Below, piece after piece: positions 5,375-22,095 of a stretch of 46,548 nucleotides of DNA. The notes beneath the pieces were generated by a model. That model searched no databases. It had not been told where the DNA came from and worked only from the letters and a program-made list of their open reading frames with translations. This DNA is from a virus. Its lineage: Duplodnaviria > Heunggongvirae > Uroviricota > Caudoviricetes. Position 1 is the stretch's first letter. Each line of letters begins with the position of its first letter. Made by a program: the position numbers and the translations under genes. The DNA is taken from IMG/VR virus record IMGVR_UViG_2878930440_000003. One strand, given 5' to 3'.

Positions 5375-6198
5375 TAGCTAACTTTCTTGGTTGTTGTTCT
5401 TTCCAAAGGATAGCCACTCTTCATAAAGTCACTAATTCCTATGTAAGTTCGCTGTAAATCTTTCTCATCGTCCTTCAGATCTTCCGTTGCGTTGATAGCC
5501 GCCTCATTCAAAGTCTGTTCGTCAAAGACACCTTTTCTTACCTTATCGAAATAAGAAAGAATTTCTTTTGTCATCAAATGGTCAGCCAATCTCTTGAAAT
5601 CCTTATCCATCACTAATGCCATGAAATCATAAGAATTTTCAAAGGCCAAGATAGGAGCAAAGTCCTTGAACGCTTGCATTAAGTTAACGTGCAATTCTTC
5701 AAACAGCTTACGGATGATATTCTCGTAAGTTCCCAAACAAAGGTTGGTCAGATTGTACAGGATGATTGCATTTGCATAAACTCCCGATTTTTCACCAATT
5801 CCTAAGTTCTGTAACCTCACCGCAAGCTTATCTCGCAACTTGTATAAGTCTTCACTAATCTTGTCATAGAACGTCATTGCGAATTCGTTATTGAAATCTG
5901 CATTAGGAACATAAGCGTCATAATACTTAATCACCTTGCGAAGGTTCTTCTTGCAGTCTACCCACTTCTTCTTAACTTCAAACCTAACGCATTTCTTCTT
6001 CAGAATACTCTTTTCGATTTTCTGCATGAAGCACTCTGCCAACACCATTTCAACATAGACATATTGCTGAAGATAACCTCTAGTAATAACCATAACCTTG
6101 TTTACTTCTGTTTCGGTCATTCCATTCGGAACACTGATAATTATCTTCTTACCACCTACGTTCAATAAGACTCTTCGGAAACAATTTACACTAGGCAT
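5374..6198 (-). CDS. Hypothetical helical protein
   Basis: 274 aa ORF in operon. Confidence 0.8.
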   Translation of the reverse strand: MPSVNCFRRVLLNVGGKKIIISVPNGMTETEVNKVMVITRGYLQQYVYVEMVLAECFMQKIEKSILKKKCVRFEVKKKWVDCKKNLRKVIKYYDAYVPNADFNNEFAMTFYDKISEDLYKLRDKLAVRLQNLGIGEKSGVYANAIILYNLTNLCLGTYENIIRKLFEELHVNLMQAFKDFAPILAFENSYDFMALVMDKDFKRLADHLMTKEILSYFDKVRKGVFDEQTLNEAAINATEDLKDDEKDLQRTYIGISDFMKSGYPLERTTTKKVS

Positions 6199-14842: not shown

Positions 14843-15019
14843 ATGGATAACAAGAAAAGTAACAGAGGAGGTGCAAGGGCTGGAAGCGGACGAAAGAAAG
14901 GGAACAACGTGAACCTTTGCATAAGGATGCCAAAGGAAACCGTGGACTATATAAAGCAGAAGTCCAAGGAGGAAAATGTTCCTATAGGCTCTTGGATAAC
15001 CACCAAGCTAGGACTTTAA
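14843..15019 (+). CDS. Small DNA-binding protein (GGARxGSGRK plus ribbon-helix-helix-like; 58 aa; not in track)
   Basis: Manual translation MDNKKSNRGGARAGSGRKKGNNVNLCIRMPKETVDYIKQK... Confidence 0.65.
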   Translation: MDNKKSNRGGARAGSGRKKGNNVNLCIRMPKETVDYIKQKSKEENVPIGSWITTKLGL

Positions 15020-15065
15020 CGAAGATAGCCCCACCGACTAGAACGATGGAGCTATTTTTGTGTTA

Positions 15066-15632
15066 TTAGCTGTTTATTACACGTCCATCATTGCAGACGA
15101 GCTTTCCGTACTTGATGTTCCCGACACGTCTGAGCCAACCCTTCAGATTTACCTCTTGCTTAGGGTCGTTCTTCACGATGTCGTTAAGGTAGGTAATCCT
15201 AGCGACCTTCAGACTGTCGAACAAGACCCACTGTCCTTGTTTAAAGTTATTGATAGCCGCCAAGGTGTTCTTGCCCATGATTCCGTCCACCTTTGTTCCT
15301 ACAACTTTCTGTATCTTCTGGATAGCCTTTGAACAGCCGCTATTGTAGGCGAAGTCCACTAGGAGGTTCGCCACCGATTGGTTGTTTAGCTTGTCAGCCA
15401 TGCAAACATCCCAGTAGTTCCTCTTGAACAGCCGATCATAATCTGCCTTGGTAAGCAACTTCACATCCTCGGCATTGATTACCCCATCACCATTCTTGTC
15501 ATATCCAACCTTCTTCCAAGTAGCGAGCGTGATTCCGTATTTTGTCGCTCCACCCCTATCACTCTTCTTGTTTGTATACTTAGATGATTCCCAACTAAGT
15601 ACGAACTCGCTTAAAATGTCCGATTTAGCCAT
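15066..15632 (-). CDS. Endolysin, glycoside hydrolase family 108 with peptidoglycan-binding tail
   Basis: E..(WESSKY)..DRGGATKYGIT, YW, DFAYNSG, KVDGIMG, KGWLRRV. Confidence 0.9.
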   Translation of the reverse strand: MAKSDILSEFVLSWESSKYTNKKSDRGGATKYGITLATWKKVGYDKNGDGVINAEDVKLLTKADYDRLFKRNYWDVCMADKLNNQSVANLLVDFAYNSGCSKAIQKIQKVVGTKVDGIMGKNTLAAINNFKQGQWVLFDSLKVARITYLNDIVKNDPKQEVNLKGWLRRVGNIKYGKLVCNDGRVINS

Positions 15633-15909
15633 TGTCTTTTTCCTCCAACTTTAAGTTATTGTGTTCGCCACGTTCCCCTATCGTCTTGGTAATGCCAGCC
15701 GTGACGAACAAACTAGCCACACTACCAACAAATGCACTTAACCCCATCAAATCGGTCTTGATAGTCCCATAAGTTACCACTTCCCACACTAAGATAAAGC
15801 AGACAACCAGGAGCATCAAGAGACCTATCAGAGTAACGGACACTAAGAAGAATGCCTTGCTTGAATGTCCGCTATTAACTTGTATGAGTAATTTCAGATA
15901 CTTAACCAT
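15625..15909 (-). CDS. Putative holin (2 TM)
   Basis: Two hydrophobic helices, charged C-terminus, overlaps the endolysin start. Confidence 0.65.
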   Translation of the reverse strand: MVKYLKLLIQVNSGHSSKAFFLVSVTLIGLLMLLVVCFILVWEVVTYGTIKTDLMGLSAFVGSVASLFVTAGITKTIGERGEHNNLKLEEKDNG

Positions 15910-15912
15910 ATT

Positions 15913-16341
15913 TTAATCCTCCCTGTCACGATATATCTCATTTTCTTCCTTTTCAACCAACGTTTCTAAGGATTCTCGCTTTCTTGGTGGGGTTCTAAGT
16001 TGGCATCCATCCTTGATGCATCTGTTCCATTGTGCCTCATGCAAGGCAAGCTTCAAATCGTTCTTCTCATCCCTTAGATTGCGTATGGTAATACGATACT
16101 GATTGATTTCCTCATACAATTCATCTACTTTACTATTAAGATTAACGACCGACTCGTTGGAACGTTCATAGAGAGCCTTCCACTCATCGGCATATGATGA
16201 AATAGTCTTATTCTCTTCCTGTGATGCGAGTGCCGCCTCCTTTCGTTTTCTACTATTATAGTACAGCAACGTGGAGATAACTCCCGATGCGCAAAGAAGA
16301 TTAATTCCCGTCTGTATTAATTGAATAGTTTCCGCTGTCAT
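15913..16341 (-). CDS. Holin-like/lysis-associated protein (N-terminal TM plus coiled coil)
   Basis: Hydrophobic N-terminus, heptads, first gene of the lysis cassette. Confidence 0.55.
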   Translation of the reverse strand: MTAETIQLIQTGINLLCASGVISTLLYYNSRKRKEAALASQEENKTISSYADEWKALYERSNESVVNLNSKVDELYEEINQYRITIRNLRDEKNDLKLALHEAQWNRCIKDGCQLRTPPRKRESLETLVEKEENEIYRDRED

Positions 16342-16501
16342 TTCCTTATGTTTTTTGTTGCAAAGATAGCTATTTATATATAATAATGTGAAAATAGCCG
16401 AGTCAGAAAACTACACAATTAATTTTTGTGCAAATAATTAAATATTTCCTTAAACAAAGTTATAACACATTAAATTATTTGCTCTATCAATAAAATCTCA
16501 T

Positions 16502-16541
16502 TACCTTTGCAAATACAGGTGAGTCACACCATAAAAAACTG
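16502..16541 (+). promoter_or_regulatory. Promoter (TACCTTTG) plus leader motif variant GGTGAGTCACACC..AACTG
   Basis: Motif at 16518-16530. Confidence 0.75.
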
Positions 16542-16548
16542 AATAAAA

Positions 16549-17190
16549 ATGAAGATAATAGAACAAGATACAATAGACATCATTAAGGCGCACATAAATG
16601 AACGACCAAGATACAAGTTGGCACAAAGAATGGGTGTCAGCGTGAAATTCTTGTATAAGATTCTACATGATTGCAATTGTAAAATCGAACATAAAAGACC
16701 TGTTCCGAAACCCAACAAGAAGCGTGATGAACAAATTGCAAAGCTTTACACCAACCATTCAGTCAAAGAGATTGCCGAGATTGTAGGGTGTCATCCGTCT
16801 ACAGTAGGAAAGGCGGTAAAAAGACTAAAGCTTACTCATTCGAATGAAACTATCGAAAGACTTAAAAAGAATAGTTTGGCAAATTTAAAGAAAGCGTATG
16901 AGAAAGCAACAATAAGTAAAAGGGTAAAAAGCTGGCAAAGAACCATGCAGATGGAGAAATTCAGAGTTATATCCTGCATTCCGCAACAGACAAGATTCAA
17001 ATTTGCGGATATGCCTATAAAAGCATATCATGCAAAGTACAATCTCATAACAAAGCATGGATATTTCGCTTTCGAAGGTGAGCCATACACCATAGGTTAT
17101 GACCGGAATACTCATAGGATGGATGAAGAATACTATAAGAACAAATATGGATTTTCTTTTGAGGAGGATGAAGAATGCCAAGAAGATTAA
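16549..17190 (+). CDS. Multi-HTH DNA-binding protein (paralogue 1)
   Basis: Two HTH-like units (RYKLAQRMGVS, VKEIAEIVGCHPSTV); C-terminal GEPY..YD..EEYY..KYGFSF. Confidence 0.75.
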   Translation: MKIIEQDTIDIIKAHINERPRYKLAQRMGVSVKFLYKILHDCNCKIEHKRPVPKPNKKRDEQIAKLYTNHSVKEIAEIVGCHPSTVGKAVKRLKLTHSNETIERLKKNSLANLKKAYEKATISKRVKSWQRTMQMEKFRVISCIPQQTRFKFADMPIKAYHAKYNLITKHGYFAFEGEPYTIGYDRNTHRMDEEYYKNKYGFSFEEDEECQED

Positions 17191-17792
17191 CAAAAGAACA
17201 GATAGACTATATTAAAGTCCACATCAATGACTACCCACGAAAGGAAGTAGCCAAGGCTGCTGGTGTTACACTACACACCTTATATAAATATATCACTATT
17301 TTAGGTGGCACAAAAATAGACAACAAGTTGAGTAAAGAAACCATCAGCCAAATTTCCGTCATGTACCAAACGATGACAGCAAGGGAAATTTCCGAAGTGT
17401 TGAATATTCCTCAATCTACAATATTAGGACAAGTCAGTAAGCTTGGTTTAAAACACAATGTAGAAACGATAAATAGAATTCGTAAAGAGCGAAACAAGTC
17501 TCTAAGAAACTATTGGAATAAAGAAAGATATGCAAGTAAAGGAAGAAAACTTCACATGCAATACAAAATGGATGAACTTAGAGTTATGTCGGGCAAGCCG
17601 CAAGAGACAAAGTTGAGGATAAGAAAGCTCTCCTCAAAGGCTTTGAATGCTAAGATGTATTTGCGAAAGTCTTATAACTATTTCTACTCTAAGGGTGAGC
17701 CGTTCATTCTCTGCTATGACTCCGAGACAAAAAGACACCCTAAAGAGGAATACTATACTGAAAAGTTTGGTTTCAAGTTCGTGTGTGCTTAA
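17175..17792 (+). CDS. Multi-HTH DNA-binding protein (paralogue 2)
   Basis: RKEVAKAAGVT, AREISEVLNIPQST; C-terminal GEPF..YD..EEYY..KFGFKF. Confidence 0.75.
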   Translation: MPRRLTKEQIDYIKVHINDYPRKEVAKAAGVTLHTLYKYITILGGTKIDNKLSKETISQISVMYQTMTAREISEVLNIPQSTILGQVSKLGLKHNVETINRIRKERNKSLRNYWNKERYASKGRKLHMQYKMDELRVMSGKPQETKLRIRKLSSKALNAKMYLRKSYNYFYSKGEPFILCYDSETKRHPKEEYYTEKFGFKFVCA

Positions 17793-17796
17793 TTTC

Positions 17797-17849
17797 TGTT
17801 TGCTGTTCCGTTTGCATTTTTCGTTTTCTGCAAACGGAATTTGCAAACA
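17797..17849. repeat. Inverted repeat TTCCGTTTGCA/TGCAAACGGAA (terminator or cruciform)
   Basis: Arms at 17806-17816 and 17829-17839, extended by TGTTTGC/GCAAACA. Confidence 0.7.
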
Positions 17850-17967: not shown

Positions 17968-17990
17968 TAACTTTGCAGCCGTAACGTTAC
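17968..17990 (+). promoter_or_regulatory. Promoter -7 element TAACTTTG plus perfect palindrome GTAACGTTAC (operator candidate)
   Basis: 17968-17975 and 17981-17990, upstream of the six-gene operon. Confidence 0.6.
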
Positions 17991-18034
17991 ATAGAGTTAG
18001 TTTAATTAAGGTTTAACACAAAAAGATTATTCTT

Positions 18035-19018
18035 ATGGAGACATCAAAAACTTATGTTTTTAATCCAGAGGGTTCAGGTAACAATGGAGGAATGATGAGC
18101 TTGATAGCTCCTTTGCTCCAACAGAGAGGCGTTGATCCAAACGTTCTTCTTGCGATGAAGGGTAATAACGGATTCGGCAATGGTGATGGTTCTTGGTTCA
18201 TTTGGCTGCTCTTTATCCTTTGCTTCTGTGGTTGGGGCGGTAATGGTTTCGGCTTTGGTGGTCGTGGTAATGGCGCAGGTCTTGCCAATGAAATCAACAA
18301 TGACTATGGTCGTTCCTTGCTTATGGATGCTATCGGTGGCAATCGTAATGCACTCAGTAATCTCGCAACTCAGCTCAATTGTACTGAAGGACAGATTCAG
18401 CAAGCTATCTCTGCCTTGACAACCCAAGTCCAGAACGTGGGCAACCAAGTAGGCATGAGCGGAATGCAAACTATCAACGCTCTTCAACAAGGTAATATGC
18501 AGATTGCATCACAACTCGCTGATTGCTGCTGCCGTGTAAATAATAATATTACGGCTATGGACGGAAACGTCAAGTTGGCTATGTGTCAGCAGACTGGCAC
18601 TTTGCAGAATGCCATCAACAATGTAGCCGTAGGACAGGAGCGTGGCTTCTCTAACGTGGCCTACGAGACCCAGCGCCAGACTTGTGACTTGCACAACGCT
18701 ATCAAGGAGAGCACTCAGACCATCGTTGACGGTCAGAAGCAGGCTGAGATGCGTGAGATGCAGAACAAGATTGATTCTCTTCGTGAGGAGAACAGTACCT
18801 TCAAGTCTTCCGCTATGACATCACAGATTGTGGGTCAGGCTGTAGCACCTATCAATGCGGTATTGGCTGGCTTGCAGAGTGAGGTGGCTGGTATCAAGTG
18901 TAAGTTGCCAGAGACGGTAACTACTCCTTACAGCCCATTTACTGCGGTTCCTAATTGTGTCGCTTATCAGGCTGGTCTGTATGGTTTGAATGCTGCCAAC
19001 AACGGATTCTGGGGTTAA
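18035..19018 (+). CDS. Gly/Trp-rich TM segment plus Gln/Asn-rich helical protein with DCCC motif; function unknown
   Basis: GFGNGDGSWFIWLLFILCFCGWGGNGFGFGG; long Q/N heptads; LADCCC. Confidence 0.85.
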   Translation: METSKTYVFNPEGSGNNGGMMSLIAPLLQQRGVDPNVLLAMKGNNGFGNGDGSWFIWLLFILCFCGWGGNGFGFGGRGNGAGLANEINNDYGRSLLMDAIGGNRNALSNLATQLNCTEGQIQQAISALTTQVQNVGNQVGMSGMQTINALQQGNMQIASQLADCCCRVNNNITAMDGNVKLAMCQQTGTLQNAINNVAVGQERGFSNVAYETQRQTCDLHNAIKESTQTIVDGQKQAEMREMQNKIDSLREENSTFKSSAMTSQIVGQAVAPINAVLAGLQSEVAGIKCKLPETVTTPYSPFTAVPNCVAYQAGLYGLNAANNGFWG

Positions 19019-19033
19019 AGAAAGGAGGCTGCT

Positions 19034-19378
19034 ATGTTATGGATGAGACCTTTTGCATGGGTTAATCGTAACGGCTCGGCAGCTATCGCATCTACAGGCG
19101 TGGTGGTGAACACCGAAAATGTCGTTTTCTCGTTCAGAAACCACGCCTTCGTGAATGCTAACTATAGGGGAACTATCTTTGTGAACCTACATCAAGCTAT
19201 TCCGACTGGTACGACAAATACGCTGCCAATCCTTTTCGAGACCAATGGCGTAACCCAAGCTGTGACTAAGTTCAACGGCAATCCTTTGACGGTAGCCGAC
19301 ATTGCAGGAACTGGAGTTTATCAGTTTTGGTTCGAGCGAGATACTAACACCCTTCAGCTAATGACGGGTATTGTTTAA
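19034..19378 (+). CDS. Hypothetical beta-rich protein (operon gene 2)
   Basis: 114 aa; AAAGGAGG ribosome-binding-like sequence upstream. Confidence 0.8.
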   Translation: MLWMRPFAWVNRNGSAAIASTGVVVNTENVVFSFRNHAFVNANYRGTIFVNLHQAIPTGTTNTLPILFETNGVTQAVTKFNGNPLTVADIAGTGVYQFWFERDTNTLQLMTGIV

Positions 19379-19397
19379 CAATTAACATTACAAAGCT

Positions 19398-19916
19398 ATG
19401 TTTCAAGGACTTCGACCTAACAGCATATTCTATGTGCTTGACAAGGGTGAAAACCCAAGTCTTAAAATCGGACAGGTTGTATCGGTCAGTAACCCACAAC
19501 CTAAGTTCCCAACATATACTCCTGGGCAATTCAACCCACAACCAATGGAGACTACCGTTGATGTTGTCGTAAAATTGCCTAATGAACAAATGGAGTTCAA
19601 ACAACTCCCATCCAATATGCAAATTGCAAATTCGGAAAACCTCGTGGTTTCTGGAAGCCGTGAAGCTATGGATGCGGAAGTTGAGGCTATGTATCGGCAT
19701 TCTAAGGAGATTGTGGAAAGCGAGCCATACCACAAAAAGGTTATGGAAGAGTGCGCAAAGATGCGTGCCGTATTGAATCCACAAATAGCCAAAGACAGAC
19801 AACAGGAAGAAGACATCAATAACCTCAAAAGCGAGGTTAGCGGAATGAAGGGAACTTTGACTGATATTAAGTCTATGTTGTCAGTGGCTTTGGAAAAAGT
19901 TAATACAAAAAAGTAA
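19398..19916 (+). CDS. Hypothetical protein, beta-rich N-terminus plus C-terminal coiled coil (operon gene 3)
   Basis: 172 aa ORF. Confidence 0.8.
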   Translation: MFQGLRPNSIFYVLDKGENPSLKIGQVVSVSNPQPKFPTYTPGQFNPQPMETTVDVVVKLPNEQMEFKQLPSNMQIANSENLVVSGSREAMDAEVEAMYRHSKEIVESEPYHKKVMEECAKMRAVLNPQIAKDRQQEEDINNLKSEVSGMKGTLTDIKSMLSVALEKVNTKK

Positions 19917-19922
19917 ATCATT

Positions 19923-20159
19923 ATGGGATACATGATAGAAATTACCGAAAACAAGGTAAATGAAATGTCAGAACTTGTAGAGAAGATGCTTAAGTATGGT
20001 GGTAAACTCATGCACTGCATTGATGAAATGGGGGATGACAAGTATGGACGAATGGGTCACAGAAATCCAATGCCGGATTACCGAGACAATTGGGATGACG
20101 ATGATGACCGCTATGGTGAAAGACATGGTGGTCGCAGAGGTGGCGGTTATCGCTATTAG
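19923..20159 (+). CDS. Small protein with acidic and RG/Y-rich low-complexity tail (operon gene 4)
   Basis: DDDDDRYGERHGGRRGGGYRY C-terminus. Confidence 0.8.
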   Translation: MGYMIEITENKVNEMSELVEKMLKYGGKLMHCIDEMGDDKYGRMGHRNPMPDYRDNWDDDDDRYGERHGGRRGGGYRY

Positions 20160-20211
20160 TATTACACTTTGAGGTGGGGAGAAATCTCCACCTCCTTTAA
20201 AAGCTTTTATT

Positions 20212-20640
20212 ATGGGAAGATACAAAATACCACTTGACGCATACGATATGAAGCCGGAAGGGATGATTGCATACCTTCGCTACAATGGCTGGCACTTCAA
20301 TAAAAAGATGTGCGACTGGGCTATTACCTTAATGCGCAAGACAAACGCAACAACTGGTAAGCTCGAAAAAGTTGAACCGACAGAAAAAGATACAGTCGAG
20401 GAACTTCTTAAAGTCAACAACGTAAAGTTGGAGAATGCCGACAATTACGATTTCGTTTATGTCGCAAACATGGCTAGAGCCGATTTCTTTAAGTCTTCTT
20501 TAAAAGACGAAGCTGCTTTGGCTCAATTCATTAAGGATATGGTGGATGACCCAGACCAAGCGGACGGATTTATTTTCAATAGATTTTATGCCGATTGCAA
20601 CCATAATGGTATCGGCATTCCATGGGATGATGTATTATGA
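20212..20640 (+). CDS. Hypothetical helical protein (operon gene 5)
   Basis: 142 aa, YLRYNGWHFNKKMC motif. Confidence 0.8.
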   Translation: MGRYKIPLDAYDMKPEGMIAYLRYNGWHFNKKMCDWAITLMRKTNATTGKLEKVEPTEKDTVEELLKVNNVKLENADNYDFVYVANMARADFFKSSLKDEAALAQFIKDMVDDPDQADGFIFNRFYADCNHNGIGIPWDDVL

Positions 20641-21005
20641 TTAAACAAGAAATTTACTTGGAGAAATACGATTGGAATGTGATTGTATGTCATATAGCTA
20701 ATCAAGAAGATGTTGACGAAGCTATGGACTTACTAAGTTCCATTGATTGTAAGGGGCAACCATTATTGGATGCATACGACCACATTTCAACCGATTCTTC
20801 AAACAAAGGATTGACATACACAAATGTTTCAAAGAAAACAAGTGTTGTGCTCATTTGCAAATCTACTTCTGAAGGTGAGTATATAAATAGTCTCACACAT
20901 GAAATGTTTCATGTAGTAGCACATATATGCAACCATCTGGGAATAGATATGCAAGGCGAAGAACCATGCTATCTTATGGGATGGCTCTGTCAGTCGATAT
21001 TATAG
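20637..21005 (+). CDS. Small zincin-like metallopeptidase domain protein (operon gene 6)
   Basis: THEMFH (HExxH) with downstream GEEPCY; 4-nt overlap with gene 5. Confidence 0.65.
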   Translation: MIKQEIYLEKYDWNVIVCHIANQEDVDEAMDLLSSIDCKGQPLLDAYDHISTDSSNKGLTYTNVSKKTSVVLICKSTSEGEYINSLTHEMFHVVAHICNHLGIDMQGEEPCYLMGWLCQSIL

Positions 21006-21081
21006 AAGATTTCCTTATAAGTTTAACTTGGCGGGCAGACCTTGGATTTTTCCATCTGCCCTCCTATAAAATTACAAGAAT

Positions 21082-21426
21082 ATGAGTTGTTCGAAAATCA
21101 AAAATTACCTTTATGAACGTTTTAATGAGGATTTTAACGTTCTATCTGAGAATGAAAATCGAGTTATCATTACATTTGATGATAATGACTTGTCGGTACT
21201 CGTAAACAAGATGGAGAATAAATTATTCATTCTCGTTCCGCTAACTAATATGCATTCGTTTGAACATCATCCGGATTGGATCTTGGTAGATGGCGAACGC
21301 ATCAATAGCAACCTATTTTGGAAGGAATGCGGCAACCAAGTGATAGAATATCAAGGTGATGCCCCTATAGCTATCAAGCAAGACACCATAGAGAGAATTG
21401 TTAATGATTTCATTAAAAACAGATAA
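21082..21426 (+). CDS. Hypothetical protein
   Basis: 114 aa ORF after a stem-loop at 21033-21061. Confidence 0.7.
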   Translation: MSCSKIKNYLYERFNEDFNVLSENENRVIITFDDNDLSVLVNKMENKLFILVPLTNMHSFEHHPDWILVDGERINSNLFWKECGNQVIEYQGDAPIAIKQDTIERIVNDFIKNR

Positions 21427-21585: not shown

Positions 21586-22095
21586 ATGACAGAAAAAGGA
21601 TATTTAATCAAGAAAAAAGTATTATTCATTGATTTAGATGACACGATTATTACAACTATATCAGGAAACACCTTTCCTACAGATGTAACAGATTTCAAAA
21701 TCCGTAAAGAGGTTTTGGATAAGATTGTAGATGCATTCCCTACTCTTTACTATGTTGAAATAGTCTCAAACCAAGGAGGCATCCCTCAATTTGTTGACGA
21801 ACAGGATTTTATCGGCAAGATTAAGGCTATTGAAAGCTTTATGCAAAAATATCTTCGCAATCATACCGGACGAAATATCTTCGTCAACTCTATGTATTGT
21901 CCATCGAATGCAGAAATAGATATGCGAAAGCCAAATACAGGAATGCTAGAATCATATTCTTCTTGGGAAAAAAGAGAGTTGATAATGATAGGCGATGCTA
22001 GTGGAAAAGAAGGTGACTTCTCGGACTCCGACAAACAATGTGCGGAGAATTTCGGTATTGAGTACATAGATATAGAAGACTTCTTGAAAATGTAA
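21586..22095 (+). CDS. HAD-IIIA phosphatase, polynucleotide/DNA 3'-phosphatase-like
   Basis: FIDLDDT (DxDxT), SNQGG, RKPNTGM, GDASG..SDSD..A. Confidence 0.85.
   Translation: MTEKGYLIKKKVLFIDLDDTIITTISGNTFPTDVTDFKIRKEVLDKIVDAFPTLYYVEIVSNQGGIPQFVDEQDFIGKIKAIESFMQKYLRNHTGRNIFVNSMYCPSNAEIDMRKPNTGMLESYSSWEKRELIMIGDASGKEGDFSDSDKQCAENFGIEYIDIEDFLKM

Follow-up and report, generated by a model that had tools for sequence, protein, structure and literature searches.

A mobile, fixed-order six-gene cassette of Bacteroidales phages, associated with lysis genes and possibly acting on the host cell envelope

We analyzed a 46,548-nucleotide (nt) stretch of Caudoviricetes DNA (IMG/VR record IMGVR_UViG_2878930440_000003, hereafter the window), which carries a block of six consecutive genes, designated g1 to g6. 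This cassette is an accessory, horizontally mobile, fixed-order unit of Bacteroidales phages, and it is linked to holin and endolysin genes in lineages with otherwise different surroundings. We tentatively propose, with a probability of roughly 0.4, that late in infection it works alongside the lysis genes on the envelope of the host cell. The member families are recorded only as PHROGs or domains of unknown function (DUFs). We found no description of the cassette in the published literature, nor any publication naming DUF7841, the Pfam family of g5, or the carrier phage C3_41T2LP; a 2026 paper on gut-phage adhesins was considered and set aside, as it concerns immunoglobulin-like Hoc-type proteins, which are another family. 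The original prediction, made from the letters of the window, had described an operon of unknown function outside the replication and known defense categories; our searches of Pfam, PHROG, PADLOC, NCBIfam and the PDB likewise gave no match to a characterized virion, replication or defense family.

Conservation, order and mobility of the gene block

All six open reading frames (ORFs) lie on the plus strand where the original prediction had placed them:

18035-19018, plus strand: g1, lead protein of 327 amino acids (aa); phrog_16490, E 2e-53
19034-19378, plus strand: g2, beta-sandwich protein of 114 aa; phrog_31654, E 4e-27
19398-19916, plus strand: g3, beta-barrel and long helices, 172 aa; phrog_28898, E 3e-39
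19923-20159, plus strand: g4, helix followed by a charged disordered tail, 78 aa
20212-20640, plus strand: g5, helical protein of 142 aa; Pfam DUF7841
20637-21005, plus strand: g6, minimal zincin metallopeptidase of 122 aa; phrog_1365, E 3e-10

Within the window, the cassette strand is opposite to that of the virion genes. Every ORF, including the low-complexity g4, is under strong purifying selection, with median ratios of nonsynonymous to synonymous substitution rates (dN/dS) of 0.04-0.12 from 48-71 pairs per gene (0.07 for g1 and 0.08 for g4), which places the six far beyond chance ORFs. The 4-nt overlap between g5 and g6 suggests that g6 is translationally coupled to g5.

We ran tblastn and iterative hidden Markov model searches over about 270 loci, taken around g1 homologs in IMG/VR, GenBank phages and GTDB genomes. 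With a 60% cutoff on g1 identity for de-replication, 39 clusters had enough downstream sequence. A homolog search with the g1 protein returned near-identical, nameless copies only. Across the loci, the genes form a string on one strand, g1-g2-g3-(g4 slot)-g5-g6, and the canonical order was found in 34 of 34 clusters. Among the 39 clusters, g5 is present in 37, g2 and g3 in 36 each, g6 in 28 and g4, as judged by homology, in 16; the g4 slot nearly always holds a protein of 70-130 aa with an N-terminal helix, a D/E/R/G/Y-rich tail and an Arg-rich end. The carriers include Crassvirales of the families Steigviridae (cr116_1), Suoliviridae (cr4_1, cr53_1, cr273_1, cr7_1) and Intestiviridae (ctcc615), the cultured Bacteroides phage C3_41T2LP, and prophage regions of the cultured species Bacteroides gallinarum, Paraprevotella clara, Paraprevotella xylaniphila, Parabacteroides segnis, Parabacteroides hominis and Parabacteroides leei. 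The exact g1 protein occurs on at least 1000 contigs, and g1 homologs are counted in thousands. The statement of the original prediction that such gene strings recur in gut phages was confirmed by profile and neighborhood searches; its extension to more than one host phylum was not confirmed, as every cultured host belongs to Bacteroidota and the other labels come from bins of metagenome-assembled genomes.

The flanks differ among the lineages, which have the cassette genes alone in common, and PhiCrAss001 shows a 236-bp gap at the exact site where cr116_1, a relative from the same subfamily, has the block. The cassette is therefore accessory and movable. Its co-occurrence and order persist despite wholly different flanks, and together with purifying selection on every member this is the signature of a functional unit. 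Rearranged and reduced forms also occur: in cr4_1 and cr53_1, g5 has moved to a position in front of g1, and vir215 has g1 alone. Compared with the window, the loci L042-L056 are 83-88% identical in g1 and g2 and 38-62% identical in g3-g6, while L017 and L212 are 91% identical in g1 and 99-100% in g2-g6. This mosaicism in sequence identity indicates recombination, with breakpoints inside or beside g1 and at the g2-g3 junction.

Some loci show further peculiarities. Insertions of about 0.8-1 kb, which may be of the homing-endonuclease type, separate g1 from g2 in L213, L219, L230, L233 and L188-L190; the one in L219 contains a 223-aa ORF on the opposite strand (5418-6098). An I-HmuI-like endonuclease is encoded just upstream of g1 in C3_41T2LP. 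Under translation table 11, cassette genes are split into several ORFs in L085, L088, L003, L110, L114, L119, L220, L225, L226, L229 and L270, likely owing to stop-codon reassignment, which occurs in some crAss-like and related gut phages. A 2272-bp contig of Vibrio olivae CECT 8064 (L264) carries g1-g2-g3; its short length and gut-phage content point to contamination and not to a phage of Vibrio.

Association with lysis genes

In a census with 13 seed proteins, 15 of 43 de-replicated clusters had a holin or endolysin gene no more than 3 kb from the cassette, and in 11 the distance was 1.5 kb at most; with so small a seed set, these counts are a lower bound. The nearest lysis gene is co-directional with the cassette in 12 of 16 cases. 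Against random placement, this proximity has a P value in the range of 1e-3 to 1e-8, with 1e-3 applying to 40-kb genomes and far lower values to larger ones. The arrangements vary with the lineage: cr4_1 and cr53_1 have the string holin(-LysB-like)-DUF7841-g1-g2-g3, an endolysin gene follows the cassette in cr273_1, a holin/carboxypeptidase precedes it in cr116_1, and the P. segnis prophage has a holin, an M15 endolysin, one ORF and a helix-turn-helix (HTH) gene, followed by the cassette. In the cultured Parabacteroides phage PD691P6, a g1-like gene, g3 and a fused g4-g5 gene come right before the genes for a holin, an endolysin and an Rz-like protein. The statement that the operon fits no lysis category has consequently lost ground, given the significant association with holin and endolysin genes, the back-to-back position with the window's own lysis operon and the single operon shared with lysis genes in PD691P6.

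The g1-like protein of PD691P6 is short and has a Gly-zipper and a DCCCE motif. The fusion in the same phage (L276:4755-5393) joins a His/Asp/Glu-rich disordered segment to DUF7841 and is the equivalent of g4-g5. BF503P2, where DUF7841 directly precedes the holin, has a reduced cassette and no full g1; an 80-aa Cys/Gly-rich ORF there (L275:3170-3412, DCCGCG...GCGCGG) recalls the CCC and GCGC tail motifs of g1. A Fic/DOC gene (L250:5648-6802, E 1e-17) lies between a tail-fiber gene and the cassette in the prophage of Paraprevotella clara YIT 11840, which is a typical position for a moron.

The lysis genes of the window itself are the following:

15066-15632, minus strand: endolysin; phrog_315, E 1e-37
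15625-15909, minus strand: holin-like protein of 94 aa with two transmembrane (TM) segments, read directly from the sequence
15913-16341, minus strand: Rz/LysB-like protein of 142 aa with an N-terminal TM segment and a coiled coil, read directly from the sequence

This complete lysis operon (15066-16341) stands back-to-back with the HTH genes and the cassette, so that the two blocks are divergently transcribed. A simple lipobox scan of 14900-16560 gave no o-spanin lipoprotein near the Rz-like gene, which leaves the outer-membrane step of lysis unaccounted for.

Predicted proteins and control elements

The lead protein g1 starts with a conserved N-tail, in which D34 and P35 of a DPN motif are invariant, followed by one very hydrophobic Gly-zipper segment (residues 54-67, core WFIWLLFILCFCGW) embedded in Gly-rich runs. 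A Gly/Asn-rich linker and the motif NNDxGRELLMxAIxGN lead into about 200 aa of Q/N-rich helices (22% Q+N). The CCC at 164-166, within DCCC, is invariant, C116 and C289 are nearly so, and the C-tail is rich in Pro, aromatic residues and Cys. I-spanins and class I fusion proteins are likewise built from an N-terminal hydrophobic anchor, a long coiled coil, conserved cysteines and a Pro-rich C-tail. The AlphaFold2 (AF2) monomer model of g1 is all-helical at a mean predicted local distance difference test (pLDDT) score of 52, as expected for an oligomeric coiled coil, and it was left out of the fold searches. Outside similarities of g1 are all of the coiled-coil type: heptad-repeat-1 (HR1) of coronavirus S2 (E 0.03-0.1), the 'Rz-like spanin' family phrog_1327 (weak, E 1.1e-3), XaxA, and the coiled-coil tail of ZorA (E 1.3e-4). 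The last was the only match of any cassette protein in PADLOC-DB 2.0, where g2-g6 had none and no system was matched. Such similarities explain the loose labels 'spike protein/glycoprotein' and 'outer capsid protein/viral fiber' of g1 homologs in GenBank.

We compared g1 with two kinds of elongated phage and viral proteins. The DNA pilot protein H of PhiX174 is of nearly the same length (328 aa) and shares the layout of g1: a hydrophobic glycine-zipper helix in the N-terminal part, a Q/N-rich coiled coil in the middle and an aromatic C-terminus. However, g1 lacks a microvirus context, and no homology to H/VP2 was detected (hhalign probability of 0.24%), with no Pfam Microviridae family matching at E values up to 0.1. 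Class I viral fusion proteins and the P22 tail needle gp26 share with g1 a Gly/aromatic-rich hydrophobic segment followed by Q/N/A-rich heptads; as in the fusion proteins, a Cys cluster follows the first helical region of g1, and the later helices could fold back. This likeness is compositional and below significance, and the g1 monomer model is of low confidence.

We folded g2-g5 with AF2 as a natural read-through chain of the close relative L048 (85% identical), in which the genes share one frame, with 12 comparable natural fusions as anchors in the alignment. All globular parts were modeled with confidence, at a pLDDT of about 90 for both g2 and g3. In this model, g2 resembles one bead of a trimeric phage tail-fiber shaft: it matches, with middling scores, bead III of the Pa193 tail fiber gp47 at a Z score of 5.4 (root-mean-square deviation (r.m.s.d.) of 4.0 Å over 96 residues), and internal domains of tail-collar and tail-fiber proteins in AFDB at E 3e-4 to 5e-4 (r.m.s.d. 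of 4.1 over 105 residues for a tail-collar fiber at E 3e-4). Whereas the gp47 beads are parts of a fiber polypeptide, g2 is a free-standing protein of 114 aa, which in the window contains no Cys at all. The N-terminal SH3/KOW-like barrel of g3 has generic similarity to domain I of EF-P, Tudor and chromo domains (Z 5-6.4) and precedes two long helices, and the sequence of the C-terminal helix of g3 matches trimeric coiled coils; g3 also weakly matches a 'virion structural protein' PHROG (E 5e-4). The model of g4 is a helix followed by disorder, corresponding to an N-terminal helix and a tail that is first Asp-rich and then Arg/Gly/Tyr-rich. Fusions of g4 to DUF7841 occur in PD691P6 and in AFDB entry A0A2A7B6L8. 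The description of cassette parts as nucleic-acid-binding-like is weakened, as it comes down to a generic barrel in g3 (Z about 6) and a charged tail in g4.

The g5 protein belongs to DUF7841 (E 1e-24, 87.4 bits against a gathering threshold of 25.2), has a conserved acidic DDxDxxDG loop, and is modeled as a compact helical domain at a pLDDT of 95-98 whose fold matches its own family only. The PDB comparison for g5 is thin, because g3 matches filled the lists, and we make no claim of a new fold. DUF7841 comprises 932 clusters at 50% identity, and the best 150 representatives are all small stand-alone proteins of 80-196 aa. In g6, the residues H88, E89, H92 and E108 are invariant in 29 homologs, down to 26% identity. 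The HExxH motif and the downstream Glu being invariant, g6 is very probably an active minimal zincin, as judged from its sequence. It scores below the gathering threshold of every curated family (SprT-like, E 0.04, 14.2 bits against a cutoff of 25.6); within its own family, Peptidase_M78 matches 2 of 29 members (E 6e-4) and eCIS_core one, and the C3_41T2LP homolog is annotated as 'PolyVal metallopeptidase'. The HExxH and the Glu 16 residues further on are common to g6 and the known minimal zincins, namely the PolyVal MPTase (Iyer et al., 2017), SprT-like proteins, ImmA/IrrE of the M78 family and DUF4157. Unlike these, g6 is a stand-alone protein of 122 aa paired with DUF7841 and not with an Xre repressor or a polyvalent protein. 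We also considered g5 and g6 as polyvalent proteins, packaged in the head and injected like Dar of P1, whose domains are built into large multidomain polypeptides with MPTase hubs, and rejected this as both stand alone, DUF7841 doing so in its best 150 of 932 representatives.

Taken together, the described protein features hold: the Gly-rich core, Q+N content and DCCC of g1, the all-beta g2, the barrel and helices of g3, the tail of g4, the helical g5 and the HExxH of g6. Sequence-profile searches of the PDB with g1, g2, g3, g5 and g6 gave generic coiled-coil or chance matches only. Foldseek found nothing in the PDB at E 1e-3 or better, a Swiss-Prot fold search nothing meaningful, NCBIfam nothing specific for the cassette proteins, and a feature-based protein atlas search unnamed viral clusters only.

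The elements around the cassette in the window are listed below:

16549-17792, plus strand: overlapping pair of HTH paralogs (213 and 205 aa); HTH_23, E 3e-8; phrog_323, E 2e-10
17808-17837: hairpin after the second HTH gene, read from the sequence
17968-17975, plus strand: putative promoter, a Bacteroides-type -7 box (TAnnTTTG; TAACTTTG) 67 nt upstream of g1, read from the sequence
17981-17990: perfect 10-bp palindrome (GTAACGTTAC) a few nucleotides after the -7 box, possibly an operator
21030-21064, plus strand: GC-rich hairpin at the end of the conserved block (-21.8 kcal/mol, z -2.7)
21082-21426, plus strand: 114-aa ORF without a family match, downstream of the cassette
21586-22095, plus strand: PNK3P-family polynucleotide 3'-phosphatase (E 7e-21), downstream of the cassette

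Of 29 de-replicated loci, 12 have a TAnnTTTG box at a distance of 48-100 nt upstream of g1. The view of a self-contained unit with its own predicted host-type promoter, whose genes co-occur in fixed order in many gut phages, is supported. A GTAA-N(0-4)-TTAC palindrome was found at the same place in three of the 29 loci, representing three deep lineages (the window, cr116_1 and the L156 cluster), against a background of 0.8% (P about 2e-3); as the pattern was picked post hoc, this recurrence is merely suggestive. The closing hairpin has no T-run and is absent from the terminator-scan calls, and hence is not a canonical intrinsic terminator. The two HTH genes, whose family phrog_323 is labeled 'D5-like transcriptional regulator', occupy the slot that in other lineages belongs to a small HTH gene (g0) at the head of the cassette, which encodes a 97-aa DnaA_C-like HTH protein (prophages) or an excisionase/TerS-like HTH protein (cr116_1, ctcc615). 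The gene pair of the window type is lineage-specific, being found in close relatives only (40 loci). The two downstream genes are likewise common to close relatives only and lie outside the conserved block.

Proposed action on the host envelope and alternative roles

In the mechanism that we propose for the cassette, g1 would be inserted in the inner membrane via its single Gly-zipper hydrophobic segment. Its long Q/N-rich helices, similar to HR1 of viral fusion proteins, would drive oligomerization and, held together by the invariant CCC and further cysteines, form a stalk in or across the periplasm. The fiber-bead beta-sandwich g2, whose gene is closely coupled to g1 and inherited along with it, and g3 would act as oligomeric partners. 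As g4 and g5 are fused in some phages, they would act as one unit, and g6, coupled to g5, would be an optional processing or regulatory zincin. Processing by g6 cannot be required for the core function, since about one-quarter of the lineages keep g1, g2, g3 and g5 without g6. For the same reason, the protease-matured assembly suggested by the original prediction is weakened, with g6 in 28 of the 39 clusters compared with 36-37 for g2, g3 and g5. Overall, the cassette would time lysis or bring it to completion, for example, by rupturing the outer membrane.

The closest precedents for such a role are spanins and accessory lysis genes. With one strongly hydrophobic segment followed by about 200 aa of helices, g1 corresponds, by predicted architecture alone, to the i-spanin layout of an N-terminal TM segment and a periplasmic coiled coil. 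This layout, together with the linkage of the cassette to holin and endolysin genes, recalls lambda Rz/Rz1, P2 lysA/lysB/lysC and T4 t-rI-rIII. By contrast, g1 is twice the usual size of an i-spanin, the phage already encodes an Rz-like protein, and the five predicted cytoplasmic partner genes, including the zincin, have no counterpart in these systems. As defined in PMC6139136, the o-spanin is a small outer-membrane lipoprotein with a lipobox, whose gene lies inside that of the i-spanin, overlaps it or is its neighbor. We rejected g1 as a canonical spanin, for which neither the region in and after g1 nor the surroundings of the window's Rz-like gene provide the lipoprotein partner. We also rejected it as a unimolecular spanin of the T1 gp11 type, given its internal N-proximal hydrophobic segment and the absence of both a lipobox and a C-terminal TM segment. 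As for holins and antiholins, small membrane proteins defined by their function of controlling the access of endolysin, g1 is predicted to be single-pass and lies beside lysis genes; separate holin-like genes are present in the window and in PD691P6.

Several observations weigh against action on the envelope. No lipobox ORF starts between g1 and g3 in any of 26 de-replicated loci, and the positive-inside rule gives no usable bias for the topology of g1. Profile searches of the PDB detected no homology of g1 to solved proteins, hhalign gave a probability below 1% against both the window's Rz-like protein and PhiCrAss001 gp27, and the match of g1 to the g1-like protein of PD691P6 is weak (29%). 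The proteins g2-g6 lack signal peptides and would thus be cytoplasmic, and nothing in a lysis role obviously calls for proteins such as a zincin, a charged disordered protein, an SH3-like barrel or a fiber-bead domain. Holin, endolysin and Rz-like genes are already present in the phage, and relatives without the cassette lyse. About 55% of the clusters have no recognized lysis gene in the fetched flanks. Furthermore, morons gather at the end of late operons, and proximity to lysis genes may therefore reflect genome architecture, not function.

Some of the predicted folds could instead suggest a virion-associated set, in which g1-g3 would form a trimeric fiber, needle or ejection structure and g4-g6 would be packaged or serve as assembly helpers. 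The Gly-zipper of g1 would then insert in the host membrane at infection, as for PhiX174 H or the P22 tail needle, and g6 would be a processing peptidase of the PolyVal type. The likeness of g2 to a fiber-shaft bead, the trimeric coiled-coil and virion PHROG matches of g3, the HHpred-style 'spike/fiber' labels of g1 and its H-like size and layout all point in this direction. So does the position of the cassette in Crassvirales: it is part of the structural block, in the same orientation, and in cr4_1, cr53_1 and ctcc615 it immediately precedes tail-tubular genes. The zincin type of g6 is, moreover, common in head-packaged polyvalent proteins (PMC5512222). However, the carriers have clearly different architectures, from crAss-like podoviruses to prophages with tail-fiber and large tail genes, and a docking fiber needs a matching site on the virion; PhiCrAss001, with a virion homologous to that of cr116_1, has no cassette. 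Because the carriers differ in virion type and PhiCrAss001 does without it, a cell-acting accessory function fits better than a virion part. Also at odds with a virion set are the placement of the window's cassette opposite to the virion-gene strand under a predicted host-type promoter, the hhalign probability of 0.2% between g1 and H, the middling fold similarities (Z 5-6) and the absence of DUF7841 from large polyvalent proteins among its best 150 representatives. We consider a role in the virion doubtful.

Action on the cell could also take the form of a moron, that is, a superinfection-exclusion, abortive-infection or host-modulating system under HTH regulation, with g1 as the membrane effector or gate and g2-g6 as cytoplasmic sensor or regulator parts. 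A separate putative promoter, an operator-like palindrome and a closing hairpin would suit such a system, as would the HTH gene at the head of the block in many lineages, the variable flanks, the patchy presence among relatives, the mosaic recombination and the location in the moron zone beside the Fic/DOC gene of the P. clara prophage; the tail-fiber-like domain could even be a decoy or sensor for incoming phage parts. We nevertheless hold this to be rather unlikely. Apart from the ZorA tail (E 1e-4), PADLOC gave no match, and the cassette has no nuclease, ATPase, NADase or other usual effector. It is common in virulent Crassvirales, lies within the late structural/lysis operon of cr4_1 and cr53_1 without a regulator of its own, and its association with lysis genes would be left unexplained. 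Still less probable is that g1-g2, g3-g4-g5 and g6 are separate sub-modules with distinct roles, kept together by operon inertia and co-transfer. The discordant identities along the cassette in L042-L056 and L017, the relocated g5 of cr4_1 and cr53_1, the missing g6 in about one-quarter of the lineages, the solitary g1 of vir215 and the reduced sets of PD691P6 and BF503P2 would agree with such independence, but g2, g3 and g5 each accompany g1 in 36-37 of 39 deep clusters, and the canonical order holds without exception in the 34 clusters.

Returning to the envelope, it is poorly understood how Bacteroidota phages cross it in their hosts; the crAss-like phages among them rank first in abundance among human gut viruses. 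Neither the lysis region of the window nor the sequence in and after g1 yielded a canonical lipoprotein spanin. One may speculate, though with considerable doubt, that the cassette is an unrecognized envelope machine specific to Bacteroidota phages, either a lipoprotein-independent breaker or fuser of the outer membrane or a gate for lysis timing, with g1 as the stalk, g2 and g3 as fiber-like partners, and the DUF7841 protein and zincin as the control. The presence of the cassette in cultured phages (C3_41T2LP, PD691P6 and BF503P2) and in prophages of type strains makes its role directly testable. Knowing this role would give a function to six PHROG and DUF families at once, and it could explain differences among gut phages in lysis, persistence or competition.

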